From a virus, in the IMG/VR virus record IMGVR_UViG_3300017730_000002, positions 45,287 to 109,286 of that record: a stretch of 64,000 nt of DNA; one strand, written 5' to 3'. The notes under the pieces are model-generated. The model had not been told where the DNA came from, did not search any database, and worked only from the letters and a program-made list of their open reading frames with translations. Position 1 is the first letter of the stretch; every line of letters starts with the position of its first letter. Made by a program: the position numbers and the translations under genes. Shown here piece by piece: positions 17,185 to 50,338 of this stretch.

Positions 17185-17792
17185 GTACAAGACAAGAGAA
17201 CCAAAAAGTTCTTATGGCAACACACTTGCCAACATTTAAGAGGTTGAAGATTGCTGACCCTTATTTTATTGCTAAGTCTGCATGGGCGCCCCCAGGAGAA
17301 GCGCTTAAAATACAGTTCTTTCCTAATGAATTAAAACAAGGAAGAGATATCTATACAGAACTTAGTGATTTTAATGCTGTATCAGAAGATCCAACACATA
17401 CATTGTATAAATTAAAGCATAATCCTTTTTATAAAGAGGAATATCCTTTAGAACAAAAGACTAGTAAGTCAGGTAATGATTATGAAGTTTATGTTGTACC
17501 TATTGAGGAGCTTGTTGCTATTGATAAGAAATCAGGTAAAGAAATACCTTATAATTCATATCAAGATTACTTAAAGAACCCTCCCAAAGAAGAAGTAGAG
17601 ACTAAACCCGCTGATTTTCCAAACTTTACTGAAGAATATCTTGATGTAGGGTTGAAGAAGAAAGAGGAAGATGATCCTAAATATGTTCCTTGGAAAGAAG
17701 ATGAAGAAGAAGTAAAAAACTTTCCAGATTGGTTAAACACTTTGGATAGAATAGCAACTGCATTAGAAAAAATAGAAAAGAAAATAAAATGA
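17181..17792 (+). CDS. Hypothetical protein of the replication module
   Basis: 203-aa ORF between DnaB and the AAA ATPase. Confidence 0.75.
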   Translation: MSTRQENQKVLMATHLPTFKRLKIADPYFIAKSAWAPPGEALKIQFFPNELKQGRDIYTELSDFNAVSEDPTHTLYKLKHNPFYKEEYPLEQKTSKSGNDYEVYVVPIEELVAIDKKSGKEIPYNSYQDYLKNPPKEEVETKPADFPNFTEEYLDVGLKKKEEDDPKYVPWKEDEEEVKNFPDWLNTLDRIATALEKIEKKIK

Positions 17793-18514: not shown

Positions 18515-18542
18515 TTATTAACAATTAAAAAAGAAAAATCAA

Positions 18543-19226: not shown

Positions 19227-19236
19227 ATTTCATTTT

Positions 19237-19244
19237 TATATTTG
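19237..19244 (+). promoter_or_regulatory. Bacteroidota-type -7 promoter box
   Basis: TATATTTG in the intergenic gap before primase. Confidence 0.45.
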
Positions 19245-19248
19245 TAAG

Positions 19249-19280
19249 TAAAGGGAGGATTTTTTAGTTCTCCCTTTATT
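19249..19280 (+). terminator. Terminator-like hairpin
   Basis: TAAAGGGAGGA/TTCTCCCTTTA inverted repeat. Confidence 0.6.
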
Positions 19281-19297
19281 GTCTAAAAACATATTGT

Positions 19298-30605: not shown

Positions 30606-30761
30606 TCAAGTACGATCAAATACATGCAATGATAAAGTACATATAAATAAATATAAAGTAAACGTATTCATTTGTTCTTTCTCATTTGGTGCTATATATT
30701 CCCAACCTAAAGCACACCTATCATGAGGCCAATGCAAAGCTATATCTAATTGCCAATTCAT
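30606..30761 (-). CDS. Small hypothetical protein (51 aa, not in ORF track)
   Basis: MNWQLDIALHWPHDRCALGWEYI...; TAATG overlap with the 1945-aa gene stop. Confidence 0.65.
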   Translation of the reverse strand: MNWQLDIALHWPHDRCALGWEYIAPNEKEQMNTFTLYLFICTLSLHVFDRT

Positions 30762-33700: not shown

Positions 33701-36598
33701 TTCACCATCTTTATCTGTAACAGTATTTACAATTCTAAATCTTTCTTCATAAAGACTATTAAGCTTTTCTATTACAGGATTATTACTTGACTTGGCCTGA
33801 AGTTTTCTTAAATCATTTAATATTTGATTTTTATCTTGATAGTATTCGCTAGTATATGCAACCTTGGTATTTTTTTCTAAGAATTTGTTTACTTGCTCAT
33901 TGAATAATTCAGGATTAGATTCTTGTGTAATACCTTCTCCAGCTAATACAACATTTATAAAGTGATTATAGTCATCTTCAAATCTTTGCATATCTGTAGA
34001 ATACTCATAAAACTTTTTAGATTCTTTTCTATACTTTCTTCTTACTAGTACTCTTTGAAGTTCTTCACCCTGCTTATACTTACCGTTTATATCTACAAGA
34101 TTGTAGAGTTCATCATACTTTATTTTAGCTTCTTTAGATGCACTAAACTCTAAAAGATCATCGAGATCAGTCCAGGCATCATTTACATTTAATACATTAA
34201 GTTCCTCAAGAGCCTTCTGTCTTTCAACAAATGCTTCTGCAGAAACTTTAGCTGATATAGTTATTTCTCTTTTAGTAGAAGGGTCATATATGGTATTAGG
34301 TTGCTCCCATATTTTTCTAACATTATATACCTCTTGAGTATATGGTCTATGCATATACTTTTCGTGAAAGTCATTAAGCTCCTTAGTAGCCTTTATTATA
34401 GCATCTTTGTCCCCACTTTTGTGTGCAATTTCTAAGTTATTTTGAAGACGATCTCTATCAAATCTCCAACCTTTAAACTTATCAATTACAGAATAAATTT
34501 CATACTCTTCAATTTCATTAGTATTTGGATTTATTTCAGCTACAGTATCCACAAAAAGCAATGCTTCAGCAACCTGTTTAGGATTAGTTATATCTACACC
34601 TGCTGCTTTAAAAAGAGGATTTAATTTTTCACCAATTCTATTAACTTGATTAAGACTTTGTGTTTCTGATAAAGATAACTTGTTCTTTGTATATCTGTAT
34701 ACAGAACCCAGTAAGTCATCTACATTACCCAAAGGAGTATACATTGCTCCTATATTTCCAAGATCTTCTGTTCTACCCTCTAAGTAATTTAAAATAGTAT
34801 CTCTGCTTATCCTTTTTGCAATATAAGTTTTGATATTGTTAATGATAGGTTTACTTGCTGTGGTTTTCCTTGGTAAATTTAAAGATGAAACACTTCTTAC
34901 ATTTTCATTATCTATCTTATTTAAAATATCTTTTACAAAGGCATCTATCTCTTCTTCTGTAAAATTATCTGCTGCCAATAAACGCCTTACTTCTGATTCA
35001 AAGTTCCCCCTAATATTTTCAGACATTGCCTCAGTGTTCTCTTCAAAAAATTGCACCGTAAAATCTTTACTAAGAGTACTTACTAACTGTAAGTTATCTT
35101 CAATACTTTGTGATATGGCAGCAAGTTTATTCATAAAAGGATTTGATCTATCAGAACTTTTTAATCTTAATCTTGCATTATCTATAAATTGTTTTTCAGC
35201 TGCTAAGAGTTTTTTGAAGTATTGAATTTTTGCAATACCGTCTGTAGATAGATGTCTCTTATCTTTTTCAAGTTCTCTTAATATATTATTAATCTTATTT
35301 GAAAAAGTTTCAATCTCACTAATACTGTTTATAAGAGCAATAGATCTAGTTCTTAAATCAGACTCTTGTTCTGCTAAACCATCAGCTACTTTATCAAGAT
35401 TCTCTTCAGATAATCTACCATCTTTTGTTTTAAATGGCGCCACATAATCTCTAATATTTTCCAATACAGCCCTACCACCTTCAGCTTCAAGTTCTTCTTT
35501 TAACTTTTTAGGGCTATTTTTTAATACACGTATTTGATACTGCATTTCTTCACCCATTGTATCAATAGTTTCTTGTAAAGCCTTATCAGAAGATTGACTA
35601 AGATCCTTTAAAAACTGTTCTGTTTCTTTTCTAAAGTCAGCCAAATCAGATTTAATATATTCAAAATCCTCTATTACAAAGTCTTTATTAATCATCATAT
35701 CAACTAACTCATCAAGTGTAGTTGACATTTTAAGTTTCCCAAGATTTACTTTTTTTCCAGCCAATGCCCTAACAACTTGTTTTATAGCATAAAGTATTTT
35801 CTTTAGTAGTTTTTGAAACTCTGTATCATTATCTATAACATCATTTATTATTTCATTCCCACCAAGCTCAATTGCTTTTACTAAAACTTCTTCTTTAAAT
35901 CTATCTGTATTAGGTTCTAGTTCAGGGTATAAATCTTTAACAGAATTTATTATTGCTTTTCCTTTATCTGTACTCGCTGTCTGATCGTAAAGATTATAAA
36001 ATAATTTAGCATTCTGCTTCTGAATGGCTTTCATAAAAGGATGCGCAAATTCATGTAACACATTAGATGAATTGAACTGACCCTCAATAAAATACACTTT
36101 ATCTCCATAGAAAAATGCAGATACACCAGCCTTCAATGGCGTAGGTGAATTTTCTAATAATAGTTCTGCCTCAGTTTGTGTAATAATAACTGAATCTATA
36201 CCAAATATTTTAGTAAACTTATCAGATAATGCTTTTGCAATAAGTTTATCTTTCTCTACCCTTAATCTTTCATCAGTAAAAAGATCATCAGTATCATACA
36301 AGTATCTATCATTGTATTCTATACCAGCTCTTCTAGCATCAAGCCTTTGAACTTGTCTTGCTTCTTCTATTTCTAGATTTAGCTCCTCTTCAAAGTATTG
36401 ATTTACTAAACCTGGCGATATGTATATATCTCTTTCTACAGTATCACCTAATCTAAATGTCACAACTTCTTCTCCAAATCTTTGATTTATAGTATTAGCT
36501 AAAGCTCTAGCATTTTTAATATTCATACCAAGTCCTGCGCTAGATAATCTATCTACTACATCATAAAGGTTAGATTTTATTTGTTTTCTACAAGGCAT
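30761..36598 (-). CDS. Giant virion/ejection protein with zincin-like domain and LysM domain
   Basis: VLHEFAH...EEVL near the N-terminus; LysM HTVGEGNTLESIAKQYSIPVEKLMAKN...LEPGEKLII; hydrophobic C-terminal helices. Confidence 0.8.
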   Translation of the reverse strand: MPCRKQIKSNLYDVVDRLSSAGLGMNIKNARALANTINQRFGEEVVTFRLGDTVERDIYISPGLVNQYFEEELNLEIEEARQVQRLDARRAGIEYNDRYLYDTDDLFTDERLRVEKDKLIAKALSDKFTKIFGIDSVIITQTEAELLLENSPTPLKAGVSAFFYGDKVYFIEGQFNSSNVLHEFAHPFMKAIQKQNAKLFYNLYDQTASTDKGKAIINSVKDLYPELEPNTDRFKEEVLVKAIELGGNEIINDVIDNDTEFQKLLKKILYAIKQVVRALAGKKVNLGKLKMSTTLDELVDMMINKDFVIEDFEYIKSDLADFRKETEQFLKDLSQSSDKALQETIDTMGEEMQYQIRVLKNSPKKLKEELEAEGGRAVLENIRDYVAPFKTKDGRLSEENLDKVADGLAEQESDLRTRSIALINSISEIETFSNKINNILRELEKDKRHLSTDGIAKIQYFKKLLAAEKQFIDNARLRLKSSDRSNPFMNKLAAISQSIEDNLQLVSTLSKDFTVQFFEENTEAMSENIRGNFESEVRRLLAADNFTEEEIDAFVKDILNKIDNENVRSVSSLNLPRKTTASKPIINNIKTYIAKRISRDTILNYLEGRTEDLGNIGAMYTPLGNVDDLLGSVYRYTKNKLSLSETQSLNQVNRIGEKLNPLFKAAGVDITNPKQVAEALLFVDTVAEINPNTNEIEEYEIYSVIDKFKGWRFDRDRLQNNLEIAHKSGDKDAIIKATKELNDFHEKYMHRPYTQEVYNVRKIWEQPNTIYDPSTKREITISAKVSAEAFVERQKALEELNVLNVNDAWTDLDDLLEFSASKEAKIKYDELYNLVDINGKYKQGEELQRVLVRRKYRKESKKFYEYSTDMQRFEDDYNHFINVVLAGEGITQESNPELFNEQVNKFLEKNTKVAYTSEYYQDKNQILNDLRKLQAKSSNNPVIEKLNSLYEERFRIVNTVTDKDGEPNGRDLNSIQIERLKTIENEIVAQNLLFDRKTGLSKAESRTLNQLNFKISKKAKLSADELKVFQDLTTRQNEFGMTSIEIGNMRNLYSKLNALRNITPTDNYIAAFNDALEGTGADPVTAETVEDFVLDKVALNKIFNETEGGSVFEEWFYKNHFERDMYDGEKMSPGFVRLKVWSLERPSNKNHYKTTSIKDSEGNTINIQGVPIAKYSTSTIKDKYRTIPMGADRSQYVGTIIDNRGNFLPKEFTGDVINGAFDDKYQNKKFYEMQSKNDAKFKLLQGYKKELLDLQKDAVLSSRMYLDLPRFRQRTNVEAFTSGQTAAKLKAKKEQVSTALEYVSSYVQGKKDDAEDGFNFDESLIYIPTDLEGNRITRVPVRGMYKLSLAETSTDAMRSIWDYLYSLNEQKALMEDEPVMNAILGIISDDENAIKNLNVASRNTGKISSRLNLISKNKGEDKRITALREFIDRTYYGQRVSEFQQNNRPLTKAMRALSGNAARAFFALNPQSSLKNRGGMQFNKAIEAAGGKYLDARTLVRGKYRAAKATWQMGTVGNYARGAKPMDVQISEAFDMAPGKSRTEFGESTTRTLVTDFFDGKWLYSDRKLMEQNSAMELGFGIMYKQMVDVMQPDGTVKQIPYADAWTTDEDGVLKLKEGVDPEYSHVPINHTVGEGNTLESIAKQYSIPVEKLMAKNKIKSKRKLEPGEKLIISKSTQFNNLKLIIADANARLNGITNKIDSPLAEKYLGYSLATFSRRFLTGMVLNRFQFDTAKNNLFGDVYNWNTNELTRGYYIDAIDSLRKMLTTGQYRSKYMTDREKAAWRKIVTETAYLAILGLAAGLLFGYDPGDEDRFKKIRERQEKDYPFLIGWSGNQILYQLIMIQKENRLFLPIWGAKDQLSMIDSSTIMLGPTVVAYVRILNDLYNLATGSEKAYYKQDVGYYDWQKEGSNKIWNHLGQTIGLTGKNLSPMWAIKKNEQFENLR

Positions 36599-36619: not shown

Positions 36620-39600
36620 TTAAAATCCACAGAAATCATCTGTTCTATCTATTGGAGGTTTACCCTTAGGTCCAAATTCTTTTTTAACATCTTCTTCAAA
36701 TTTACTTAAGTCTCTCTGATCCATACGGAGAGTACCATCTGGATTACGTACTACTCTTCCAGATAAATATCCTGGAGGTTGATCACCAGTTGTTGTATCG
36801 GTAGTAAAATCAGTATTAAGATTTCTTCTAGTTAAAAAGCTATCTGTAAGAATTTGTAGAACTTGTTTATTAGATAAAAGATTTAATAACCACTTGGTAA
36901 ACTTCTTCCACCAGTTTAGAGCTTCACCTTTTTGTGCTACTACTTGTTCTCCTATAGCTTGAACTAAAGCTTCTTCCCCACCAAATCTTCTTATTCCTTC
37001 CTGAACAAGTTCATTGTCTCTAAAGTATGCAATGTAATGATGAGCATACTCATGAGGCAAAGTATCTTGTTTTTGGTTTGCCGCATCAATTAAAACAGTC
37101 ATAGCTTTTATATTAGCCTGACCTATAATTTTATCTTTGTAAGTTTGATTTAATAAATATAAATCACTAAATACATTAGTAGTGCTACCATAAACAAGTT
37201 TATTTGTTAAACGACTGTTTAAATCAGTTAAGTCTGCTAACTTTTGAAAAGGTGCTTCATAACCAGTAAACAAGCTCTCCTGAACTTTATCCCATTGATC
37301 TGTAGCAGTCATAGAAAGCACTCCTTCAGCTATACCATTGTTTAAGTCTTTAAATAACTTACCACTTGATTCTGCAGTTACAGCATTTAAGAACCAACCT
37401 GGAACTGGAGCCATTATATCTCCTGCTGTATTTATATCTTTATCGTCTGCAGTAAATTCATCTTTATTAGCAAGTACATATTTAACCAAGTCTTGTTTAG
37501 CTTTTAATTTTACATACTCTTCATTTTTTTTACGTTCAAGTAAGTCATTACTATTATGAAAATAGGTAGGGCTTGTTAGTCCTCGCAAACCATCAGTAAT
37601 ACCATTAGTAGCTAGGATATCTTCTGCTAAATCACCAAGACCACTTTCTATGGCAGATGATGGTGCAGGTCCGTAATAATGCTCCCAAGACAGCTCAAAC
37701 TGAGATATCCTTCCTTTAACAAGATCAGCTTTTCTTTGCTCAGGTGTTTGAAATTGTACTTTAAGTCTTTGTTTTAATAACTCCTTTTCTAAGTTTTCTA
37801 AAGCTACATAATCAATTCCTTTTTTGATTCTGTCTGTATTATTTTTAAAATCTTTTAAAGCAAGTTGTGCATCAATCCAACGATCATCAGATGATGTGAC
37901 TTCTTCACCACTATAATATGTTACATCTTTATATAACTTTTCCCCAGTAACTGGATCTTTTCCAGCACGTTCTCTTCGTTTAGAAGGTACTCTTTCATAT
38001 AACTTATCTAGTTTACCATTTATAAAGTTATATGTATATATACCTTCTTTTCCTTGTAAGTTAAAATCTCTACGAACACCAGGAAATGTTTTAGTAATGT
38101 ATGGACTCATACTTTGACCAATATCAAAATAATTCTGAGCAGTTACAAAAAGTTCAAATAAATCCTTTTTAGTTTTTGTACCATTATCAAATCCTGAAAT
38201 AGTATCTTTAATCTTTTTAATTTCTAGATCTGCTAAATACTCAAGATCTTTATCGGCTTGTTCAGCTATTTCAATGTCTTTAATGTATTGAGGATTATTA
38301 GGATCCATACCGCTTTTTTCTCCTTCCTCAAGTCTTTTAAGTTCTTGTTGAGTTGACCAATCAAGAATTTCTTCACCGTAAGTATCATATAATAAATAAC
38401 CTAATGCATAAACATCTAAAGTAACTCTACCTCCATACTCTACGTTTATATACTTATAAGGATCACTCTTTATAGCATTTTCCATTGTAGCTAAAAAAGC
38501 TACTTTATTTTTACGGCTAAATGCATAAAATTGAGAAGCGGCTTTTTTTAAAGGTGCTGTTAATTCTGCAATAACTTTTTGCGTTGTTTCTTGAGATCTT
38601 TTCATCTCCTGATTGAACACATCTGGACTAGAATCAAATCCAATGGGATCATTTGTAAAATTCAGCTTTATGTTAGGATACTTTTCTCTTAATACAGCTT
38701 CAATTTTCTTAGATAACTCTTCACTAAATTTAGTATCAAATCCAGTGGTGTCAGGACCTAAAATTATTTCAGGGTTTCTACTCACAAAACTTTCAAAACC
38801 TTTTAAGTCAGCTTCATTACCTAGTATATGTATTTGATCTATATCATATACCACATAAATATCTGTAGGAGTTGGATCCATTGTATTTTTTATAATAGAA
38901 GAATCCTTATTAGTTTCTTTATCTTCTTTTATAATAGCAGCAAATGACTTATCTCTTCTAGTTTGTTCTTTTTGCGTATAAGTACCAGGATTTTTCATAT
39001 CCAAAATAACTTTAACTAAATTTCCATCAAATGCAGAAAAACCTTCTTCTCTTGTTTTTTTTATAAACTCAGAAGCTTCTTTAAATGTTAAGTTCTTTCT
39101 TATTCTTTCATCAGATTGAAAAGCATCTCCAGTTTGTTTAGGTTTTAAATAGACAGCATATTTAATCTTGTTATCATAAAATTCATTTGCTTTTGCAAGT
39201 CTACCTTTTTTAAATGCATATAATGTAAAAGAACCACCGTCATCATCCATTACATTTCGAGGCTTTTCAAAAAATTCCTCTTGCTGTTCTAAAGTTGATT
39301 TATCATATAAAGTCTTTAATATACCATTAGCATCAATAGTATCTTGTTCTATGTATGTACTAAAAGGGTCCGCTGTTAAATATTCTAAAGCTGTTGAAGG
39401 GTTATCTGCAAAAAAGAACCCTTCTTGTGCAGATGAAGATCTAGTATAAGATCCAAGTTTTTCTTTTGAAAATGGTTTAAAATTTTCATCAGTACCATGA
39501 TATAAAATATCTTTTACTTGACTATTTGGGAATATAGATTGTATGTATTCAGCATATTGTTCTTTTGTACCAATAGCAGCAAGCTCAGGATTTTCAGAAA

Positions 39601-42600
39601 ACAGCACATCTATTTCAGGATTAACTTGATCAGTAACCATTAGCTTACTAAACTCGTCATTGAAGATAATGTTAGATGGTATAGGTCCTGCAGATGCAAA
39701 CATCTCTGCCATCTCTAAAGGACTATATCCATTTAGATTTCTACCTTGTGTTGTGTATAAAACATATGCATTTCTACTAGGATTTTTTGTATAGTAGTCA
39801 TACATATTTTTTATTTGATTTATAATCTCATCTTTAGGAACCTGTCTAGCAGGATCATCCATAGGAAGTTGCCAATCAGTTACGGTTTGTATTGCATAAG
39901 ATGAACCTTCCGTACCTGTTTGAAATCCTCTAGGTTGGCCTACTATAACTCTAAGACCCTTACCTTCAATCTTTTGTTTTTTATATGCTCTAGAATCATT
40001 AGCATATAGAATACCAGCTGTACCTCCACCGTGGAATCCATCTTGATTAGATCCAAATACAGTATCTTCATTACCTTTTAGGTTTTTAATATCAACAAGA
40101 CCTGTATAAGTTTTAACCTTAGCAGGCGGTTGAGTAGATTTATCTATGTTTCCACTTTTTACAGCATTATGTCTAAGTGTAATACTAAATCTTTTAGACT
40201 TATTTCCTTCAGCATCTATACCATGTTTATAATTGATTTGCCCATCTTTACCCATTATTAAACCTAGGCCAGATTTCATAGATATTTTATATTCTTTTTT
40301 ACCCTTTAGAATCATAGTTCTTTCATCACCAAAACTTATAGTTACTACAGAAGGATTTAACTTACCTTTATTATTTAATATAGGCTCGTTGTCTGTATGG
40401 AATCCTATTTTTTGACTACCATCCTTATATTCATTTATAAGAACCATATCAAAGTATCCATCCTCAAAACCTAAATCTCTAGTTATTTTAGAGACCAACC
40501 TTTGAAGTTCAACACTTCCTGTATTAGCAGGCCTAGTTGTCCCTGAATAAGAATAACTTTCATCAGAAAAATACATACTGCGTCTACCCCTACCAAATTT
40601 ATCAGAAGACTTATGCTCAGATTCATAAGTTTGATCATACAATGTTTCTATAAAATCAAAAACTTTTTTAGACTCTTCGTTTGTAAAAACTTGTTTAGTA
40701 AAAACTTCGGCATCTTCTACATTAACACTTTTTAAACCCTTGGTATTTACTAAACCATTAGTAAGTAAAGTTGCAATGTCTAAATCACTACTTTGATCTG
40801 TTGGTTGAACAGGAGCTATAGGAGCACCATATTCTTTAGGATCTACCACTAAGTCTATAAACTTATCGGTTGACATTTTACCAAATTTTAAAAGCTTCTT
40901 AAATACAAATTCAAAAGTAGCATCATTGCTTTGAGCATCTGTGAAATTCTGACCAGCTACATTCATTATATTTACAAAGTTCTCATAAGGAAGAACATCA
41001 ATCATTGAATCTCTATTATATCCACCTGTACCATTTTGATATATAGATATCAAAGGTAACCTCGCAAATAATCTAGACAATCTTAAGTTCTCAGCTCTAT
41101 CAGCTACTTTCTTTACAGCAGGGTCTGCAAGATCTTTTAAGTTTTGGTAATAGATATCGCCAAGACCTTCTGTCTTTTTTACTTGAGATATGTTTCGTAA
41201 TGATAAAACTTTTATACCAACATTATCACCAAACTGTTTAGGAATATAAAGCTGCTCAAGTATAGGATACTTTTGCTTTAAATCTGCATTTCTGTCTATA
41301 CTGTCAATTACAGTTTGTGAATAAGAATAAGCTCCTGTTCCCATAATTACAGATCTATTATAAGAATCCAGAAGCGCTTCTTTATTCAAGAAGTATTCAT
41401 AGGCTTGTTTTGTAGCATTCTCTTCAGTAAAATTAAACTGAGTTTTTAAAGTATTCTTAACAGCAATAAATTCTTTGTCACTAGATATATTTTCTAGTGG
41501 TATTCTAGATCTTAAATACTCTCTTGCTATTACATACTTTTTATACTGTATAACATTATCAAATATATCTTTATTAAAAGTTCTTAGACCTTCTTTAGGA
41601 TATGTTATAGAATTTTTTAGATAAGCTTTGTTAAAAAAGTCTCTTTCTATTTTAGCATTATCTACATATATAACATCTGACTGTTCTGTCATATTAGCCA
41701 TTGCACCTCTTTCTACACCTTCTCTGTTTATAATCTTACGGCCCATGTATGTTTCAGGAGTAGATGTTAGCTTACCATTAGAATCCACAAAACCTGTCTG
41801 ATAGTTTTGGAATATATAATCCATCAAACTATCTTTAAATCTTGTTATAAGTAAAGACTTCTCATCTCTGGTTGCTCTTATAAAAGGAAGTTCTCTCTTA
41901 AGAAAATCATTAACTCTGTCATTATTTCTAAATTGAAACACAGGAGTTACAATATCTTTAATAAGATCACCTATCCTGAAGCTACTTAATATAGATTCTT
42001 CTCTTAGTTTTCTTACAAGCTGTTGATCCACCTTTGTTAGATCAGCTAAACCTTCATAATTAGCTTCTTTAAGAATTATTTCTTGTAGTGTTCTTGATGT
42101 AGTTGTATCAGGATTAGACTGAAGCTTTAAACTTGTCAAACCTTTTAACTGCTTTTCAATTTCTAAGAAATGAAGAAACATATTTAATCCTACGTTATTT
42201 GCTCTAGGATCATTTGAAATAGTATCTCTATTTACAGAAGCCATATCACTAGTAGTAAAGACATCCTTATCTCCCATTCTTCTACTTAAAACATCATAGA
42301 AGTTTTTATTAGTTATATACTGGTATACCGTAATATCTTGATAATCTTCTGTTGTAAACTCAAGTAAGCTACCCTTTCTATTTTGTTCAAGAGCTATTTT
42401 TTCAATAGTTCTACCTGCAGCTTCGTATTTTACAAACTGGCGCTCAACACCTTCTGTTGAATACTCGCTACCCAGCTTTCTCTGTTGAGCAGCGTATTCT
42501 ATTACATAAGGGTTAGATACAAACTGTACTGCTGACTTAATTGGAACACCAGCTTTTATTAAGTACAAAAGTATCGGAGCTACCTCTCTATTACCTTGAA

Positions 42601-45600
42601 TGTTAAACACCCAAGGATCCTTTTCAATATCTACAAATCCATTTAACAATTGATTATAAAGCTCATTAATGTTATTACCATCTTTTGCTGTAACATCCGA
42701 TATTGATATAGATCCATCAGGAAACTCATTATGTGGTAAGAATAGTCTCATATTATAATCACCATCTGTAAGTGTCCAGCCGCTTTTTATAAAATTAGGA
42801 AGACTTGTCTCTTTAATTACTTCTCTTTTGCCTGCTTTATCTACTACAGTAACGGCTTTAACATATCTCTTAGTTGCATTATCATATATTTCTGGAGAGT
42901 ATTTTTTAGGCATCTTACCTCCTTGGCTGTTTATTATAGGACTTAATGCATTTTCTATAGCTACAATACCAAGTACTCTTTTACCTATCATGTTCTCAGT
43001 ATGCTTCTGTAAATTATAGATAGGCTCGATTGTTCTTGTTGGACTTATAACCTTTGTCTCTTTGCCGTTTTTATCTACTTTAATTTTGACACCTTGACTT
43101 CTGTTAGCGTATCTATCATAAGTTGCTACATCATCTCCAATTTCATCAGCTATCTCTTCTTTTAATAAATAAGTAGCATTAGGTTTTACTAAGTTAGCAT
43201 AGTTAGATTTTAGACTAAGTATCTCAGCCATGTTAAACATTATATCATTTTGTAAAGCAAGCTTCTTAGTATTAAATATCTTTTTCTGAGTAGCTTCAGT
43301 AGACATGTTTGCCATCTCAATAGTCTTTTCTACAGAAGAATTATATTCAGTCAAAGACCCATCAGAATTTATGTTAGGAAAAAATATATTAAGCTTATCA
43401 ATATCAAAGTCAGATCCTGATTTAGCAACTATCTCTGTTGGAAGTATTATAATGTTACCCGCACTTGCTGGAAGAAATTCATGAACCTCACCAAATTCCA
43501 TATAGTTAATACCTCCAACAGGAATACGTGTACCTACTATGGTAACCTTTTTTCTATTTTCACCATTATTAGCATCTAACCACTTTTCGTCCTTTATAAG
43601 CTTATTTAAATTAGCTAAACTAGCCTCTTCATCTAAAACTCTAGTTGTATTTTCTACACCAGAATCATCTATATATGTTTCTTCTCTATATACAGCAACG
43701 TCATCAAGTCTTAAAAGATTTTTAAAACTACCTTGCATCGCAATAGCTACTTTCATACCTGCAGTACTACCATCTTCTGGTTTAGTTCTGTAAAAAGGTA
43801 AATCGTTTGTACCTCGATATTTTTGAATGTCTGCTGTACTTGCTGTTTTGTACTCAGCTTGATTCCACATACCGTTGGTCAAAGCACTAGAAACTTGAAC
43901 TAAAGACTCACCATTAATTCTTTGATTAATAATTCTTTTTTGAATTAGATTAATTATCATTGACTCAATATCACCAGCTTTAAAGTGATATGATAAATCA
44001 GTTTCTAAAGTTCCATTTACATTCTTTCCTACAAATTCTATTTGATGTTCAGGGACATTTCTTCTGCCTAATTCTCTTTGAACTAAGCTTAAGAAGTTAT
44101 TAATATTACCTATATACTTATCGCCTTCTTTTCTATATCCTATTTCAGACAAAAGCTCTTCTTCTAAAATCTTTTCATAATCACTTATCAATTTAGCGTA
44201 TCTTTCTGCAGCATCCTTAGCATCAGGATCTGTAATAATACCTCTATTATAGAGATCTTTTAAGATCATTTTTCTAAACTGAGTAGAAAATATAGTTTGT
44301 TTTTTAAACTTCTTTGGAACGCCTGTTACATTTTTAAGATACTCTACGTAGATAGTATTCATAGTAAAGTCAATATCACCCTTTAGTGTATCTTGCTCTT
44401 TATTCTCAGCATCAAAAATTATATCAGCGCCTTCTGGATTAGATGCTATATGTGAAACTTTAGAACCTGTCTTAAATAAAGAATAGTGAATACTTTTATC
44501 CATCATTTGTTCATGAAGACTTTCTAATTCACCAGTCATTACCCCAGGTATCAATGGCATAAGTGAAAATTTATGCATTGAATTAACAGGTAACTTAGCT
44601 TGTTTTATACTACCTGAATAGAATAACTTATATGGCGGAAAGAATTCAGTAACTTCATTTATACCCACATATTCTCCTCTAGAAATTTTTTGAAACAAAG
44701 CTTCTTGCTCATAGCTCCAATCATTTTCTAAAAATCTTAAAGATCTGTATGCATCAAAAGTAATATAACCTTGGCCATCAGCCTCTTCCATTCCTTTATA
44801 AACACTGAGATCTCTCTTTACAAGTTCATCTACTCTAGCTTTATCAAAGTTTTTACTATAGAATTCTCTGAGACCCTTTTCTATCTGATCTAAATATTCA
44901 CTGTCTCTTTCAATGTCTTTCATAATAGCAGTATTTAAACTACCATCATACCTAAGAGTCTTCTTACCATTTTGCTCTGCATAAGAAGTCTTTTTTAAAT
45001 GACCATTAACGAATGTCTGAGCTGCTTTATCTACTCTAAAAGTTTTACCACCAGACTTAGTACCAGGAGATCTTTTTGAAAGCTCTTCTTTCTCATGATT
45101 GTATTGTGATAAATCACCTTCAAGTAAATTTGCAGTTTCAAAATTATGAATCCATGAATTATACACATAAGCCGCAGCTAATAATTTCTGTTGTCCAAGT
45201 GGATCTTCAGTAATTTTATTAACCTCTTCTAATAAGTTCTTACTTAAATAGTCATTTTCTGCAATTTTTAACCGAACCTCAGTTGCTAACTTATTAAAAT
45301 ACTCATTTATTTCACCTTTTATCTTAGCTTGTAATGTGATGTTTTCATTTTCTAAATAAGATTCTAAATCAAAAAACTTACCTTCATTTTTATCAATGAT
45401 GTCATATATTTCTTGCTTAGTATCATCAGTTAATACGTCATCAAATATTGTAAATGACTCACCTGCCATTCTACCATTAGTAAGTTTATTATTAAATCCT
45501 ACATAGTTTTTAAACTCTGGGTTACTCTTAAACTTATGGATCCTGTTAGCTTCAGAAGCTAAGTAGCCCAATATAAACTCATTGTTTATTAACTCTTGAG

Positions 45601-48600
45601 TACCTCGATAATCACTAAACTTGTCTATATCAATGTATAAATTAGAGTTCTTTTTATTAAGATCAAATCCTAACTTACTTTTAATAGACCCTGTAAACTT
45701 TAAACCAAATGCAGACTTCTTAGATGCAGCTCTAATAAACTCTTGTGTTCCACCTAGCAGCATCATGTGAAGCTCTTGTGAGAACTTAGATCCTTCATCT
45801 AAGTCAGCGGTATTAGTACCTCCACCTGTTTCTTTAGTAGTACCAGAATCTAAGAATAATTCAAGATTAGCATTTTGTATACGCTTGCCGCTTGTTGCAG
45901 TAGAGTTTAAAGAATACATACTTCTTAAAAGTACTGACTTAGATGTAAAAGGATTTATGTCAGGACTAAGATAATTCATTGGATTATTTTCACTATCTAT
46001 AAGATTTTGAAAATCTTCTGCATCATTTATTTTGGATGTTCTTGTAGATACTGTATTATTTTCTATATACTCATATACTATATTTCCTTCTGCATTCTGT
46101 ACACCAAATATATTAGCCGCTTCTCCAAATCTTCCTTGTAAACGTGCTATTCTATCTATCTGAGTTTTTTGAGACGTAGCAGATGTAGACGTAATGCTTT
46201 TATCTAAAGGTCTTTGAAGTGTCTTAATGGGATCCTGCAGTAAGTCAGATAATCTATCAGTTTGTGTTTTACTTAAAGGCGCATCCTGAGTGCTTACTTT
46301 ATCATATACATTTTTAAGATTACCATAGATATATTCTAAACCATAAAATCTTTGACCCTCTGATGAAGTTAATTCGGTTCTTATGGTATCAATATTATCT
46401 ACATATAAACCAATTGCTCTAAGAAATTCTACAGACTTAGACGTATCAAACTTGCCATTTTTACCAAAGTCTTGGATAACCTTTTCTAAATTTAACTCTG
46501 TTATTTTTGAAGATGGGTTCAGTGTTGTGTATGGGTTATCCATATCACTCATGTACTGATTTCTAAACGTATTAATAACATTTCTAGCATCAGCAGATGC
46601 ATTATTTACTTTGGCTGTATCATCCTTAAATAAAGTTAGCTGTATATAAGGTACTCTTGACTTATTAAAATCCTGCCAGAAAGATGTAGTAGCTTTAAAG
46701 TCATAAATATTATTAGCTGCTATACTTGGGTTGGGAAGCTTAGTTGAAGTCAATTGTTTAAAAGGTGCATACATGTCACCTGCCTTAACCAGTTTATCAT
46801 ACATTACTTGAGGATCAGATTCACTTGCAATAGTTCTTACAACATTATTCCACGTTAACCTAAAGTCAGCAAGCTTTTTAAATCCTAAAGAGTTTAACTT
46901 AGTCTTGCCACTCTTGTCTGTGTCATGCAGACTTTTAAGCATGTATATTGTTTCCTTACCTGCAAACTCTAATAATGATTTATCTCCAACTTTTTTATCA
47001 GCAAATCTTTCACCAACTTCTTCAGCTGTATTTTCATCCTTAGTAAGTTCATCTTCTATATATGTATCTGCTAGAATCTTATATGTACTGTTTTTCAAAT
47101 GGAAACCTACCGTACCATCTGTTGCTGTGCCATAGTTTTCTACAGCAGCTGTAAGTACTCTTATGTTTTCATCAAGCTGATCTACTACAAATTCATTCTC
47201 CTCGGCAACTTCTACTCTTTGTGTTTTAAATTCGTTTAACTTTTCCTCAAGTCTCTCTTTTATTACATCATATAAAATAGACTTTTTACCAGGATCCAAA
47301 ACTAACTTAAGAGCCATGCCTTTATTATTTTCAGAGTCAGTGCTTCTTAAATCCATAGTAACTTCATCAACTATATCAGATATAATTGAATCCATACTAT
47401 CTTTAACTAAAAGAGATTCGCTTCTTGTTAAAGCTTGTTTATCGGTACCAGGTTCTGTAATACCTATGTTTCTTTCTAACTCATCAAACTGTACATTCTC
47501 AATGGTAGGTGTATATTTATTGAGACCTTTGTTATAATAAAGAGCTTCAAACATTTCTTGAACCATTTGAATTTCCATTACATTAGATGCATATCCTACA
47601 CCAAACAACTTTTTTAAGAAATTTAATATTCTTCTAAAGAAAGTATTTCTTTTAGGAGATCCTTTTTTAGCTTTTGGATTTTTAGCATAAGTTCTAAACT
47701 CTTCTGCAAGAATTTCTTCTATTTCCTGAACACTATAATTTTTACCACCTTTTAAAGATTTTTTAACTTCTCTATATAGAGCTCTTTTTTCTTTAGGTGA
47801 TAAAAACAATTGTGTAAATCCATGCCATGCTTCGTGATATAAATCAACTGATGAACCTTTCTTAGCGATCTGTATTGTACCATACTTACCTGCAAGAATA
47901 CCGCCATATGAAATAAACTTAGCAAATGCATCTGAGTTAACTATATTAACTCCTACCTCTAAATCTAAATATTTACTAAGGTCAGATTTATTCCACCAAT
48001 CAATTGCTTTTTTATTTTGCTCAGATGTACCTTTATCTTGAGTTAATGTTCCAGATCTTTCTAAACCAAATCGTTTAGCTATACCTCTTTCATAAGGTGT
48101 ATTTGTTCCTGCTTTAGTTGTAGCATCATCTATTTGTTCTTCCTTAGATTTAGTCTGTCTATTTTTATACAGCTCTTTATAGTAAGGTACTCTACTATCT
48201 TCCTGAGCATAAAAATCAGTTTCTTGAACATTGCCAATAACTTCCCCAGTAGTACTATCCACTACAGATAAGAGTTCGGGTATAAAAATTTTAGTCTTGT
48301 TATCAATTTTTTCTTCTATTACAAATGTTATAGGCGCACCTACCATAAAGGGAATTGTGACATTTCCATATTTATATTTATCAGCAAGATAGATTTTCAT
48401 TGTTTGACCATCCACAGGTGATTGAAATAGTATATATGCATAAGGACCTTTACCACCAGGTCTTTCTCCATTTTCTACTGCAGATATAGTAGTTGTAGTT
48501 ACAGTACCAGCATTCTTTACAAAAGCTGCAAGAGCATCTTTTCTTTTTCTAATTTCAGATGGTTGCTTTTCTTTAGCATCTTCTAAAGATTTAGTTACTT

Positions 48601-50338
48601 TACTGGGTATAGCAAAGTTCATATATTGATTAAACACCTTTTCAGCATTAGCTGAAGATAAATCAATTTTACCACCTTTTAAGGAAGCAAGATAATCAGT
48701 GTAAGATATGCCAGACTTTTGAAGTTCGCCTGTTTCAATATTGTAATCTACAAAAGCATCACTTGCTAAGTTACTCTCATTAAATATTATACTTATAGGA
48801 TACTTTACGTTTTTAAACTCACTAGCATTCATGAGTGTATCAACTATAATAGATTTAGCTTCTGGACTTTTTAAATCGAGAGGCTTTGATTTCTCTGTAG
48901 GATTCTTTTGAAAAGTATCTTCAAAATAAGAAAACTGAATTGTTTTATTATTATCTAGATATTTTATACCATGTCTTCTTTGTTTTCTACTTTTAGTATA
49001 AGGAGATAAGAATTGCTTTATGTAAGCTGATCTTTCATTATAATCTAACTTATCATTTATTAATACCTCAGCAATTTTTTCAGCAGTAGCTTGATCAAGA
49101 GCAGGTCTATTTACAGTAAACTGCTCACCTCTTATATTTATTGTAGACTTGTATACATTCTGTGATTTTAATGGTGTTATTGTTCTTATTGAATCCTGTA
49201 AACCAAACTTAGAAAGAGTTCCTAATGTTAAACTTTTTTGTGTATATGCGGCCTCTACACCTGCAGAGAAACCTACAAGAGCTAATGATTTTACATCACC
49301 ATTAAGAATGCTTTTATTTAAATCGTATAAGCTTTTAAGCTGCTCTTGAAATATTTTTTCAGCAACTTCTTGAGTTACTTCTTGATCAGCCATAATCCTA
49401 GCAACGTTATTTGCCAATACTTCGTATCCATAAAGATTTACAGGTTTATACTTACCACCTTTCTTTACCACGTTTCTCATCATTTGATAGACAATCTGCC
49501 CACCCGTTTGAGTTATGTTTCCGTTATTATCAAATTTAATAGGGTTACCTTCTTTATCAGCTAATACAGTTAAGATAACTTCATTTGGGTTTATTACATT
49601 TGCCTTAGACTTTCCTGCTCTTATTATAGCAGAAGCCTTCAATAAAAAGTTACCAGTTATCTTATCTAGATCCTTAACATCCATATCAGATAACTTCATA
49701 GGCTTTAGGGTAACGTCTACTCCTTGATAAGATATAGTACCAGTTACACCTTCTTCCTGAACATCTTCAGCTTGTTGTATATTGTTAAATACAGTATAAA
49801 AAACTTTTCTTTCTTCTGAACTTTTTTGAATTAATGTTTCATCAAGTTTATTAGGATCAAGAGTTTCAAATTGTTGAAACGTTGTGCTAAATACATTAGT
49901 TGGCTCAAGCCTAACAGGCTCAAGTCTATCTACAGATGATGGAGGTATCTTAGACGTAGTCAACTCTGTTTGAAACACAGCTTCTTTTAAAACGCTTTGA
50001 CTTTGCTGTGGTGCAAAATGTTTAAGTACATTTCTTAGGCCAACGTTAGGATCAGCAAAAAGTTTATTAAGCTTAAGTATTGGATCTACATTTAGCTCAA
50101 CATCATTAATAAAGTTTGGTAAGGTTGAATAAGCTTTAAACACCATTAGTGGTACAGGCTGTAAGAATTTCACAGCAGTATCAATATCTTTTGCTTTTGT
50201 AATCTTTTTAAAAAGATCTTTCATATATGCATCAGCATCAAATGGAGTATTTTCCGATTGAGCTTGCTTCATCTTTTTAGTTACAGCAGTATATATCTTT
50301 TCTAATTGTATGGGGCTAACAGCACAAATTATTTTCAT
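36620..50338 (-). CDS. Virion DNA-dependent RNA polymerase polyprotein (single chain) with zincin, AlkB, macro-like and ART-like domains
   Basis: ADGQGY.T..YR, STQFRK, GTRIP, SGSDFDIDKL (43397-43411); HEAWH and HEYAH zincin motifs; HTD..H..R AlkB motif; FGSN..G.HGGG; YHGT..GFFF. Confidence 0.9.
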   Translation of the reverse strand: MKIICAVSPIQLEKIYTAVTKKMKQAQSENTPFDADAYMKDLFKKITKAKDIDTAVKFLQPVPLMVFKAYSTLPNFINDVELNVDPILKLNKLFADPNVGLRNVLKHFAPQQSQSVLKEAVFQTELTTSKIPPSSVDRLEPVRLEPTNVFSTTFQQFETLDPNKLDETLIQKSSEERKVFYTVFNNIQQAEDVQEEGVTGTISYQGVDVTLKPMKLSDMDVKDLDKITGNFLLKASAIIRAGKSKANVINPNEVILTVLADKEGNPIKFDNNGNITQTGGQIVYQMMRNVVKKGGKYKPVNLYGYEVLANNVARIMADQEVTQEVAEKIFQEQLKSLYDLNKSILNGDVKSLALVGFSAGVEAAYTQKSLTLGTLSKFGLQDSIRTITPLKSQNVYKSTINIRGEQFTVNRPALDQATAEKIAEVLINDKLDYNERSAYIKQFLSPYTKSRKQRRHGIKYLDNNKTIQFSYFEDTFQKNPTEKSKPLDLKSPEAKSIIVDTLMNASEFKNVKYPISIIFNESNLASDAFVDYNIETGELQKSGISYTDYLASLKGGKIDLSSANAEKVFNQYMNFAIPSKVTKSLEDAKEKQPSEIRKRKDALAAFVKNAGTVTTTTISAVENGERPGGKGPYAYILFQSPVDGQTMKIYLADKYKYGNVTIPFMVGAPITFVIEEKIDNKTKIFIPELLSVVDSTTGEVIGNVQETDFYAQEDSRVPYYKELYKNRQTKSKEEQIDDATTKAGTNTPYERGIAKRFGLERSGTLTQDKGTSEQNKKAIDWWNKSDLSKYLDLEVGVNIVNSDAFAKFISYGGILAGKYGTIQIAKKGSSVDLYHEAWHGFTQLFLSPKEKRALYREVKKSLKGGKNYSVQEIEEILAEEFRTYAKNPKAKKGSPKRNTFFRRILNFLKKLFGVGYASNVMEIQMVQEMFEALYYNKGLNKYTPTIENVQFDELERNIGITEPGTDKQALTRSESLLVKDSMDSIISDIVDEVTMDLRSTDSENNKGMALKLVLDPGKKSILYDVIKERLEEKLNEFKTQRVEVAEENEFVVDQLDENIRVLTAAVENYGTATDGTVGFHLKNSTYKILADTYIEDELTKDENTAEEVGERFADKKVGDKSLLEFAGKETIYMLKSLHDTDKSGKTKLNSLGFKKLADFRLTWNNVVRTIASESDPQVMYDKLVKAGDMYAPFKQLTSTKLPNPSIAANNIYDFKATTSFWQDFNKSRVPYIQLTLFKDDTAKVNNASADARNVINTFRNQYMSDMDNPYTTLNPSSKITELNLEKVIQDFGKNGKFDTSKSVEFLRAIGLYVDNIDTIRTELTSSEGQRFYGLEYIYGNLKNVYDKVSTQDAPLSKTQTDRLSDLLQDPIKTLQRPLDKSITSTSATSQKTQIDRIARLQGRFGEAANIFGVQNAEGNIVYEYIENNTVSTRTSKINDAEDFQNLIDSENNPMNYLSPDINPFTSKSVLLRSMYSLNSTATSGKRIQNANLELFLDSGTTKETGGGTNTADLDEGSKFSQELHMMLLGGTQEFIRAASKKSAFGLKFTGSIKSKLGFDLNKKNSNLYIDIDKFSDYRGTQELINNEFILGYLASEANRIHKFKSNPEFKNYVGFNNKLTNGRMAGESFTIFDDVLTDDTKQEIYDIIDKNEGKFFDLESYLENENITLQAKIKGEINEYFNKLATEVRLKIAENDYLSKNLLEEVNKITEDPLGQQKLLAAAYVYNSWIHNFETANLLEGDLSQYNHEKEELSKRSPGTKSGGKTFRVDKAAQTFVNGHLKKTSYAEQNGKKTLRYDGSLNTAIMKDIERDSEYLDQIEKGLREFYSKNFDKARVDELVKRDLSVYKGMEEADGQGYITFDAYRSLRFLENDWSYEQEALFQKISRGEYVGINEVTEFFPPYKLFYSGSIKQAKLPVNSMHKFSLMPLIPGVMTGELESLHEQMMDKSIHYSLFKTGSKVSHIASNPEGADIIFDAENKEQDTLKGDIDFTMNTIYVEYLKNVTGVPKKFKKQTIFSTQFRKMILKDLYNRGIITDPDAKDAAERYAKLISDYEKILEEELLSEIGYRKEGDKYIGNINNFLSLVQRELGRRNVPEHQIEFVGKNVNGTLETDLSYHFKAGDIESMIINLIQKRIINQRINGESLVQVSSALTNGMWNQAEYKTASTADIQKYRGTNDLPFYRTKPEDGSTAGMKVAIAMQGSFKNLLRLDDVAVYREETYIDDSGVENTTRVLDEEASLANLNKLIKDEKWLDANNGENRKKVTIVGTRIPVGGINYMEFGEVHEFLPASAGNIIILPTEIVAKSGSDFDIDKLNIFFPNINSDGSLTEYNSSVEKTIEMANMSTEATQKKIFNTKKLALQNDIMFNMAEILSLKSNYANLVKPNATYLLKEEIADEIGDDVATYDRYANRSQGVKIKVDKNGKETKVISPTRTIEPIYNLQKHTENMIGKRVLGIVAIENALSPIINSQGGKMPKKYSPEIYDNATKRYVKAVTVVDKAGKREVIKETSLPNFIKSGWTLTDGDYNMRLFLPHNEFPDGSISISDVTAKDGNNINELYNQLLNGFVDIEKDPWVFNIQGNREVAPILLYLIKAGVPIKSAVQFVSNPYVIEYAAQQRKLGSEYSTEGVERQFVKYEAAGRTIEKIALEQNRKGSLLEFTTEDYQDITVYQYITNKNFYDVLSRRMGDKDVFTTSDMASVNRDTISNDPRANNVGLNMFLHFLEIEKQLKGLTSLKLQSNPDTTTSRTLQEIILKEANYEGLADLTKVDQQLVRKLREESILSSFRIGDLIKDIVTPVFQFRNNDRVNDFLKRELPFIRATRDEKSLLITRFKDSLMDYIFQNYQTGFVDSNGKLTSTPETYMGRKIINREGVERGAMANMTEQSDVIYVDNAKIERDFFNKAYLKNSITYPKEGLRTFNKDIFDNVIQYKKYVIAREYLRSRIPLENISSDKEFIAVKNTLKTQFNFTEENATKQAYEYFLNKEALLDSYNRSVIMGTGAYSYSQTVIDSIDRNADLKQKYPILEQLYIPKQFGDNVGIKVLSLRNISQVKKTEGLGDIYYQNLKDLADPAVKKVADRAENLRLSRLFARLPLISIYQNGTGGYNRDSMIDVLPYENFVNIMNVAGQNFTDAQSNDATFEFVFKKLLKFGKMSTDKFIDLVVDPKEYGAPIAPVQPTDQSSDLDIATLLTNGLVNTKGLKSVNVEDAEVFTKQVFTNEESKKVFDFIETLYDQTYESEHKSSDKFGRGRRSMYFSDESYSYSGTTRPANTGSVELQRLVSKITRDLGFEDGYFDMVLINEYKDGSQKIGFHTDNEPILNNKGKLNPSVVTISFGDERTMILKGKKEYKISMKSGLGLIMGKDGQINYKHGIDAEGNKSKRFSITLRHNAVKSGNIDKSTQPPAKVKTYTGLVDIKNLKGNEDTVFGSNQDGFHGGGTAGILYANDSRAYKKQKIEGKGLRVIVGQPRGFQTGTEGSSYAIQTVTDWQLPMDDPARQVPKDEIINQIKNMYDYYTKNPSRNAYVLYTTQGRNLNGYSPLEMAEMFASAGPIPSNIIFNDEFSKLMVTDQVNPEIDVLFSENPELAAIGTKEQYAEYIQSIFPNSQVKDILYHGTDENFKPFSKEKLGSYTRSSSAQEGFFFADNPSTALEYLTADPFSTYIEQDTIDANGILKTLYDKSTLEQQEEFFEKPRNVMDDDGGSFTLYAFKKGRLAKANEFYDNKIKYAVYLKPKQTGDAFQSDERIRKNLTFKEASEFIKKTREEGFSAFDGNLVKVILDMKNPGTYTQKEQTRRDKSFAAIIKEDKETNKDSSIIKNTMDPTPTDIYVVYDIDQIHILGNEADLKGFESFVSRNPEIILGPDTTGFDTKFSEELSKKIEAVLREKYPNIKLNFTNDPIGFDSSPDVFNQEMKRSQETTQKVIAELTAPLKKAASQFYAFSRKNKVAFLATMENAIKSDPYKYINVEYGGRVTLDVYALGYLLYDTYGEEILDWSTQQELKRLEEGEKSGMDPNNPQYIKDIEIAEQADKDLEYLADLEIKKIKDTISGFDNGTKTKKDLFELFVTAQNYFDIGQSMSPYITKTFPGVRRDFNLQGKEGIYTYNFINGKLDKLYERVPSKRRERAGKDPVTGEKLYKDVTYYSGEEVTSSDDRWIDAQLALKDFKNNTDRIKKGIDYVALENLEKELLKQRLKVQFQTPEQRKADLVKGRISQFELSWEHYYGPAPSSAIESGLGDLAEDILATNGITDGLRGLTSPTYFHNSNDLLERKKNEEYVKLKAKQDLVKYVLANKDEFTADDKDINTAGDIMAPVPGWFLNAVTAESSGKLFKDLNNGIAEGVLSMTATDQWDKVQESLFTGYEAPFQKLADLTDLNSRLTNKLVYGSTTNVFSDLYLLNQTYKDKIIGQANIKAMTVLIDAANQKQDTLPHEYAHHYIAYFRDNELVQEGIRRFGGEEALVQAIGEQVVAQKGEALNWWKKFTKWLLNLLSNKQVLQILTDSFLTRRNLNTDFTTDTTTGDQPPGYLSGRVVRNPDGTLRMDQRDLSKFEEDVKKEFGPKGKPPIDRTDDFCGF

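Follow-up and report, generated by a model that had tools for sequence, protein, structure and literature searches.

Introduction

Polyvalent proteins are giant proteins of phages and plasmids in which unrelated enzymes are strung together, often with zincin peptidases that are thought to release parts of them, and which are delivered at invasion; in the article that surveys them, fusions of N4-type virion RNA polymerases (RNAPs) to zincin, ADP-ribosyltransferase (ART), lysozyme and RNase domains are explicitly described (Iyer et al. 2017, PMC5512222). For crAss-like phages, the hallmark is a DFDxD motif in a large virion-packaged protein, and for one such protein, gp66 of phage phi14:2, packaging, injection and early transcription were demonstrated experimentally (bioRxiv 10.1101/2020.03.07.982082; PMC7886860). 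Here we analyse a giant gene that brings these two themes together. It lies in a 64,000-nucleotide stretch of DNA from a marine crAss-like phage, called the window hereafter, which corresponds to bases 45287-109286 of the IMG/VR record IMGVR_UViG_3300017730_000002 (109,286 bp, ~93% complete according to CheckV). Its product, P0001, joins a crAss-like RNAP to three modules placed behind the polymerase core: an AlkB-like dioxygenase, a domain with a predicted macrodomain fold and an ART-related domain. With RNAP, AlkB, macro and ART regions in a single open reading frame (ORF), P0001 holds at least two disparate enzymatic domains, as polyvalent proteins do. We argue that it is probably a polyvalent effector cassette with an exchangeable slot behind its polymerase core.

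The resemblance to N4-type polyvalent proteins extends to several features: a single giant polypeptide, unrelated enzymes, HExxH zincin motifs, an ART with an H-aromatic-D pattern, modules that are shuffled between elements, and fusion to an RNAP of a type known to be injected (PMC5512222). The chassis, however, is a crAss-type two-barrel DFDxD RNAP and not the T7-like RNAP of N4. In the same article there are no occurrences of AlkB or 2-oxoglutarate dioxygenases, the crAss group is not covered, and 'macro' occurs three times, the one passage shown being about macromolecules and not about the macrodomain. The original prediction, made for this locus by a model from the sequence alone, took such a trio on a virion RNAP as not known to be a described system. 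This has to be qualified, because the design principle has been known since 2017 from ART and zincin domains on N4-type virion RNAPs; what stands is that AlkB and the exact trio are unusual. Searches of a limited literature set for crAss-like phages together with AlkB or ADP-ribosyltransferase found nothing relevant.

Three other comparisons are instructive. Like phi14:2 gp66, P0001 is a large DFDxD protein encoded within a block of giant genes (bioRxiv 10.1101/2020.03.07.982082); it differs from gp66 by its 4572 amino acids (aa), its three extra enzyme modules and a tail of ~720 aa beyond them, and similarity to the solved structure is undetectable with phmmer. Plant RNA viruses, too, have an AlkB-type dioxygenase within a polyprotein that contains a polymerase; there, AlkB inside replicase polyproteins demethylates 1-methyladenine (m1A) and 3-methylcytosine (m3C) in RNA (van den Born et al. 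2008, PMC2553587). Those domains come from eukaryotic single-stranded RNA viruses and sit on a non-virion replicase, whereas P0001 belongs to a double-stranded DNA phage and is presumably an injected DNA-dependent RNAP. Finally, the phage NADAR protein AdfN strips the ADP-ribose added by DarT1 from phage DNA and counters DarTG1, and a macrodomain, DarG2, acts as the antitoxin of DarT2 (PMC11825919). The slot of P0001 recalls these erasers and those of the TARG1 and Poa1p type: sister alleles of the slot carry NADAR, the DarG/TARG1 clade is among the folds nearest to the macro-like module, and removal of ADP-ribose from nucleic acid is predicted. Yet AdfN is a free-standing early protein and does not ride on a virion RNAP, and, unlike the known macrodomain erasers, the module of P0001 belongs to the A1S_2505 / phrog_2072 family, for which the sequence searches gave no link to them.

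Results

The polymerase chassis

P0001 is a single open frame (Table 1). When its residues 1401-3174 were compared by tblastn with 50,697 GenBank phage records, 13 records were matched, all of them crAss-like phages, among them crAss002 with its 'putative RNAP catalytic subunit'; the similarity is strongest around the DFDxD loop. P0001 therefore shows both features by which a crAss-like virion RNAP is recognised, the DFDxD motif in a giant protein and similarity to crAss-like RNAPs. No near-identical phage was found by megablast of 20 kb against GenBank phages. For comparison we used the 21 giant proteins (2715-5866 aa) that share residues 3175-3860 of P0001 according to a region-restricted search, and mapped the segments of P0001 on them by BLASTP. 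The DFDxD motif is present in 19 of the 21, and in 13 a HE[AS][WF]H motif lies upstream of it. In P0001 itself, the two zincin-like regions, HEAWH and HEYAH, are motifs only: neither gave any Pfam, PHROG or NCBIfam hidden Markov model (HMM) match. As the original prediction had it, the cassette follows the RNAP core directly, since collinear similarity to the other RNAP giants ends at about residue 3170. All the motifs which that prediction quoted are in frame where it had placed them in the P0001 ORF, and the E-values of the HMM matches show the domains to be far beyond chance motif matches.

The AlkB-like module

Once excised, the first module matches Pfam PF13532 (2OG-FeII_Oxy_2) with 70.7 bits against a cut-off of 31.2 (E 2.5e-19), so that the AlkB call of the original prediction is borne out by a curated HMM; in whole P0001 the score is 64.5 bits, over profile positions 8-194 of 194. 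The module also matches phrog_21963, 'alkylated DNA repair', and its best sequence matches in the PDB are human ALKBH2 and ALKBH3 (E 5e-4), IGFHTD being aligned to the IGEHRD of ALKBH2. The motifs YSYSG (residue 3262), LINEY (3300), IGFHTD (3311), KHGI (3371) and RFSITLR (3383) contain an intact HxD...H iron triad (H3314, D3316, H3372) and an intact RxxxxxR motif for 2-oxoglutarate (R3383, R3389). The cut-off of NF011930, the NCBIfam equivalog of E. coli-type AlkB, is not reached (17.2 bits against 267). These matches identify the module as a member of the AlkB-like family and not as an orthologue of E. coli AlkB. By family membership, it should oxidatively strip N-alkyl lesions (m1A, m3C) from single-stranded DNA or RNA. 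A search for relatives of near-equal length gave one fragment only, which is no proof that free-standing relatives are absent.

The region between the two linkers (40118-40816, minus strand) also matches the PADLOC model CARF_2OG (E 1.3e-6). CARF_2OG stands for a 2-oxoglutarate dioxygenase domain that candidate defence systems couple to a CARF sensor; the match therefore suggests that related dioxygenases serve on the host side too.

The macro-like module

The second module matches NCBIfam NF049995 (A1S_2505_Nterm, phage non-structural proteins) with 54.9 bits for a cut-off of 45, and phrog_2072 with an E-value of 2.7e-15. Its homologues either stand alone, as phage proteins of 140-210 aa, or form part of giant proteins as modules, and the family keeps 32 invariant columns over sequences that are 39-47% identical. 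FGSN (residue 3428) and HGGG (3436) form a glycine-rich loop, FGSN..G.HGGG.A, which comes after strand 1; SYAIQT is found at residue 3480. The original prediction had called the domain macro-like, and here only the predicted fold bears it out. An AlphaFold2 model computed from nine input sequences (mean predicted local distance difference test, pLDDT, 73) gave 72 Foldseek matches in the PDB at E<=1e-3, the best one at 6e-6; nearly all those listed are macrodomain chains, including alphavirus nsP3, macroH2A1.1, YmdB, MACROD2 and C6orf130/TARG1. The VIA fold search, an independent comparison of structures, gave Z-scores of 7.3-8.4 to BT Q8A8B0 (2afc), Poa1p, TARG1 and the DarG macrodomain, and the top 45 matches are mostly macrodomains or the macro-fold N-domains of leucine aminopeptidases (Z up to 8.6). 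With moderate confidence, we thus take the middle domain to have a macro fold, i.e. a three-layer alpha/beta/alpha arrangement, no sequence-level tie to known macrodomains having been found; its predicted role is the binding or hydrolysis of ADP-ribose adducts. A SLOG/YpsA-type Rossmannoid was also considered for this domain and was dropped, since the fold searches gave macrodomains.

The ART-related module

The third module had been likened to the ART domain of phage polyvalent proteins, and its homologues, its conserved residues and its predicted fold agree with this, the Pfam cut-off itself being missed. An exhaustive phmmer search among 1.84 billion cluster representatives returned 1529 relatives at E<=1e-3, most of which match in two stretches, N- and C-terminal, with a variable middle between them. 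Among 47 aligned homologues, 42 match PF18760 (ART-PolyVal) at E<=1e-3, with a best E-value of 2.6e-15, and the copy in the giant P0029 passes the cut-off (32.9 bits). In P0001 the motifs YHGT, GFFF and YVVY start at residues 3613, 3640 and 3828, and the key residues are H3614, F3642 and D3812. The histidine is invariant (47/47) and the aspartate is present in 46/47, while the strand-2 position held by F3642 shows Y in 20 homologues and F in another 20, the remaining ones having H (4), W (2) or S (1). The active site described for polyvalent-protein ARTs consists of H in strand 1, Y in strand 2 and D in strand 5 (PMC5512222), and the H/aromatic/D pattern of the alignment is compatible with this site.

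The AlphaFold2 model of the module (pLDDT 75) is confident in the core strands, but an insert that splits the domain, near residues 3658-3770 (38990-39330, minus strand), is poorly modelled; three segments of the 274-aa query (79-92, 115-133 and 149-165) have a pLDDT under 50. Foldseek gave no significant match with this model. In the wide VIA search, the top 22 rows were all chains of the ART superfamily, as were most of the top 37, with Z-scores of 8.4 for PARP2, 8.3 for NatT, 7.9 for MbcT, 7.7 for ParT and 6.4 for diphtheria toxin; tankyrase, RES toxins, AcrIF11 and Arr were matched as well. We therefore file the module, on the basis of this model, as having an ART fold and being related to ART-PolyVal, and not as a curated member of PF18760. 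PADLOC gave no DarT or DarG match for it.

Two further observations concern this module. The insert is also found in some short free-standing homologues (P0036, P0037, P0054 and P0055). The model also aligns, with a Z-score of 6.6, to PDB chain 9k3a_B from the pre-ejectosome of cyanophage A4, which suggests that ART-fold domains occur in solved phage ejection proteins.

Exchange of modules among giant RNAPs

An illustration of how these modules move is provided by P0019 (4171 aa), whose identity to P0001 is 95-99% across most of the alignable length, with 89% in the final 372 aa. At the position of AlkB, it has ~130 unrelated residues. This replacement is a NADAR domain: an HMM of RNAP-borne NADARs, built without P0019, matches it with an E-value of 4e-36, Pfam alone giving a weak match (E 0.006). 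The agreement between the two proteins is sharp-edged, going up to DPKEY[GA]AP and resuming at KSTQP. Moreover, P0019 passes from the macro module directly to the C-terminal region, with no ART module in between. In P0001, two NPEI-coding direct repeats of 12 nucleotides, 846 nucleotides apart, bound the ART module exactly, and P0019 has a single NPEI at the junction; such a repeat pattern bears the signature of sequence inserted or deleted in frame at a short repeat.

Other giants extend the series. The TARA surface-ocean fragment P0002, a relative of window positions 39548-40141, has a macro module 95% identical to that of P0001, which is likewise followed directly by the C-terminal region without ART; its residues 1-95, immediately upstream, form a third slot allele, a module of ~95 aa that contains ILSGEKTTTLR. 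Pfam gave no match for this module, and an ASCH-like identity that had been considered was dropped for want of Pfam support. In the fragment P0004, a NADAR domain above the Pfam cut-off adjoins an 84%-identical piece of the macro module. After the core, P0029 has NADAR, macro and the PF18760-positive ART, and P0018 combines AlkB with NADAR. The placement varies too, with ART at the N-terminus in P0014, AlkB near the N-terminus in P0020 and macro inside the zincin region in P0021.

The identity of the modules does not follow that of the polymerases. For AlkB, the identity is 70-83% in P0014 and P0018, versus 24-41% for the RNAP core, and the module also occurs in giants without BLAST-detectable core similarity to P0001. 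The macro module is 73-78% identical in P0021-P0025, versus 23-31% for the cores (one partial stretch of the fragment P0023 has 36.5%). In P0028 and P0029, with cores at 26-40%, it reaches only 35-38%. Since module identity does not track core divergence, lateral exchange of the modules is indicated. As far as these alignments go, the modules are exchangeable one by one and occur independently, and the slot is swappable between phages. None of the 21 related giants contains the AlkB-macro-ART trio.

A survey anchored on the polymerase

Single-sequence queries with the ART module or the RNAP core found no IMG/VR relatives, and an alignment-based profile was needed. With a profile of the DFDxD region, 432 IMG/VR relatives were retrieved and confirmed; 80 of these loci, each taken with up to 10 kb of flank, made up the survey. 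Their RNAP strand was scanned with purpose-built HMMs, in frames of the standard code and on the same strand only; the window served as the positive control, and all its modules were recovered. The AlkB HMM was made from close relatives and may miss divergent AlkBs, and flanks end at 10 kb or at contig ends.

Some module was found at 17 of the 80 loci: macro at 5, NADAR at 6, ART at 10 and AlkB at none (0/80). The alleles of the slot, which the original prediction had called variable, differ among the giants. All macro and NADAR copies are within the RNAP ORF; four of the ART copies are as well, the rest being in the next downstream ORF or ORFs. Of the copies in the RNAP ORF, those of macro and NADAR, along with three of the four ART copies, lie ~1.6-4.6 kb (mostly 2.5-4.6 kb) downstream of the beginning of the core-profile match, as do the window modules (3.1, 3.8 and 4.3 kb); the fourth in-frame ART copy, at locus L073, is N-terminal. 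The trio was not found at any of the 80 loci, nor were macro and ART together: the 5 macro loci had no ART within 10 kb and the 10 ART loci had no macro. The original prediction had grouped the three domains as one unit, a single system, and this part finds no support: the modules occur independently and are swapped singly, and the trio is seen in 0/80 loci and 0/21 giants. A writer, an eraser and a repair enzyme acting as one system are therefore not supported.

Some relatives carry two ART-PolyVal-type copies. At L073 (250-1175), there are ART matches both at the N-terminus of the RNAP ORF and ahead of it, and at L077 (IMGVR_UViG_3300017917_002762, 12974-20173) NADAR in the RNAP ORF is followed by ART matches in two downstream ORFs.

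Discussion

We consider it probable that P0001 is a polyvalent effector cassette, presumed to be injected, on a crAss-like two-barrel RNAP with a recombination-prone slot behind its core, in which erasers would protect phage nucleic acid and an ART writer would act on host targets. In this mechanism, P0001 would enter the cell along with the phage's DNA. The eraser modules, AlkB and macro in P0001 and NADAR in sister phages, would then clear base adducts from the incoming genome or from early transcripts, and the adducts to be removed would include DarT-type ADP-ribosylation. The ART module would modify host proteins in the way of T4 Alt, which modifies host targets, and the two flanking HExxH zincin motifs may free the modules. 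Because AlkB, NADAR and the macrodomain alternate or adjoin in one slot, the simplest unifying idea is that they are nucleobase-adduct removers riding on the polymerase that reads the injected genome. A toolkit delivered at injection fits both the architecture of P0001 and published precedent (PMC5512222; PMC11825919). Judged from the sequences, the function foreseen by the original prediction, namely a nucleic-acid modification toolkit that repairs or unmarks template or transcripts, counters ADP-ribosylating defences or modifies host targets, is plausible.

Several points weigh against this reading. Searches of the PDB with phmmer gave zero matches for whole P0001 and for its RNAP core, and the solved phi14:2 RNAP was not retrieved; because of this, the link between the two polymerases rests on the motif and on the tblastn matches to crAss-like phages. 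It is from phi14:2 gp66 only that we infer packaging of P0001 in the virion and delivery at invasion. The macro module has no Pfam family at E<=1 and no macro HMM match, its family profile found no macrodomain among PDB sequences, and the PADLOC models, DarG among them, did not match it; its model has a pLDDT of 73, a template modelling (TM) score of 0.45-0.55 and Z-scores of ~7-8.6, a range that is possibly non-specific. The ART module scores 28.2 bits with PF18760, under the cut-off of 31.2 (E 3.6e-6), the match covering profile positions 8-59 of 140, i.e. the N-terminal third, and it has F at strand 2 where the family description gives Y. Moreover, we know of no role of AlkB against any phage defence.

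One alternative is housekeeping repair: AlkB, and perhaps the macrodomain, would travel with the RNAP to clean chemical damage on the extracellular genome, or on single-stranded templates or transcripts, no host defence being involved. A source could be environmental SN2 (bimolecular nucleophilic substitution) methylation, giving m1A or m3C. Repair of these two bases, which arise in single-stranded nucleic acid, is what AlkB-family chemistry does; two repair enzymes, ALKBH2 and ALKBH3, give the best sequence matches in the PDB, the AlkB of plant-virus replicase polyproteins repairs viral RNA (PMC2553587), and the nearest relative fragment, P0002, comes by its TARA label from a surface-ocean sample. 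But the AlkB HMM found no copy at the 80 RNAP-anchored loci, which argues against a general requirement for AlkB in this phage group, its place is taken in the 96%-identical sister by NADAR, which in a phage is a shown counter-defence (PMC11825919), and conflict genes typically show such a patchy distribution with lateral exchange. We regard the repair explanation as unlikely, though AlkB itself could just as well mend chemical damage.

Another possibility goes further in the opposite direction. Because AlkB sits exactly where the 96%-identical sister has NADAR, the slot could be specialised for nucleobase-adduct erasers, and some marine hosts might alkylate (methylate) phage single-stranded DNA or RNA as a defence, much as DarT ADP-ribosylates, which a virion-delivered AlkB would counter. 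This is a speculation to which we attach a rather low probability; if true, it would mean an undescribed class of anti-phage defence together with its first anti-defence enzyme.

It is quite improbable that the ART and the macrodomain form a dedicated pair acting on each other's product, the macrodomain being a cis antidote until release, as in DarT/DarG, or the two serving for reversible regulation of the RNAP. They are adjacent in P0001, both are present in P0028 and P0029, and DarG-type macrodomains are among the nearest folds. However, the two mostly occur apart, which is why we disfavour a dedicated pair: no survey locus has both within 10 kb, P0019 keeps macro without ART (lost or never gained), and 13 of the 16 macro-bearing giants are without ART. 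That the modules survive as relics without activity, or act purely as spacers for structure or packaging within a rapidly evolving giant, we hardly credit at all: the ART is indeed split by a poorly modelled insert and under the Pfam cut-off, the macro family has no known function and the activities of the modules are predicted only, but the iron triad and arginines of AlkB are intact, H3614 of the ART is invariant, D3812 nearly so (46/47) and the aromatic position conserved, the macro family retains its 32 invariant columns at 39-47% identity, and modules 70-83% identical on cores of 24-41% point to strong purifying selection or to recent transfer of working parts.

If P0001 is indeed an injected polyvalent effector cassette, the polyvalent design predicted for the T7-like N4 polymerases is found on the unrelated crAss two-barrel RNAP, and AlkB is added to its repertoire. 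The natural allele series in ~96%-identical proteins (AlkB, NADAR or another module in the slot; ART present or absent between 12-nucleotide repeats) would offer ready comparisons for what each module protects against, and the macrodomain prediction offers a lead on the function of A1S_2505 / phrog_2072, a phage family that is widespread but uncharacterised.

Other features of the window

Table 1. Position of P0001, its modules and its motifs in the window.
Feature	Position	Strand	Basis
P0001, 4572-aa ORF, crAss-like virion-type RNA polymerase polyvalent protein	36620..50338	-	single open frame
RNAP core region, ~aa1401-3170	40829..46138	-	collinear BLASTP to giants P0018, P0029, P0014, P0021-25; tblastn to crAss-like phages
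DFDID catalytic-loop motif, aa2310-2314	43397..43411	-	sequence motif
Linker APVQPTDQSS, upstream edge of variable slot	40787..40816	-	P0019 diverges right after DPKEY[GA]AP
AlkB-like Fe(II)/2-oxoglutarate dioxygenase module, aa3222-3389	40172..40675	-	PF13532; phrog_21963; ALKBH2/ALKBH3
Linker KSTQPPAK, downstream edge of AlkB slot	40118..40141	-	KSTQP common to P0019, where NADAR ends
A1S_2505-family / phrog_2072 module, predicted macrodomain fold, aa3427-3563	39650..40060	-	family HMMs; AlphaFold2 fold
NPEI 12-nucleotide direct repeat, upstream copy, AATCCTGAAATA	39611..39622	-	sequence comparison with P0019
ART-PolyVal-related ADP-ribosyltransferase module, aa3577-3858	38765..39610	-	PF18760 homologues; AlphaFold2/VIA fold
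NPEI 12-nucleotide direct repeat, downstream copy, AACCCTGAAATA	38765..38776	-	sequence comparison with P0019
HEAWH, zincin-like metallopeptidase motif, aa835, N-terminal to RNAP core	47822..47836	-	motif only
HEYAH, second zincin-like motif, aa4429, near C-terminus	37040..37054	-	motif only; kept in P0019, P0028

The window has a GC content of ~31%, and P0001 is part of a minus-strand block of giant genes at ~30.7-64 kb, with products of 1945, 4572, 2103, 1057, 1014 and 346 aa. Its upstream neighbour (2103 aa; 50342-56653, minus strand) has a PD-(D/E)XK nuclease / phrog_298 exonuclease domain near residues 1670-1830, and the RNAP giants P0017 and P0027 carry, fused to their N-terminus, homologues of the N-terminal 1000 aa of this neighbour. 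The downstream neighbour (1945 aa; 30761-36598, minus strand) has one LysM domain at residues 1631-1673 (PF01476, E 1.9e-11). At survey locus L002, the ORF next after the RNAP also bears a HExxH-type motif, HEFAH. Outside the giant-gene block, a lone tRNA-Arg (anticodon TCT) is found at 10767-10841 on the plus strand, in a block of plus-strand genes.

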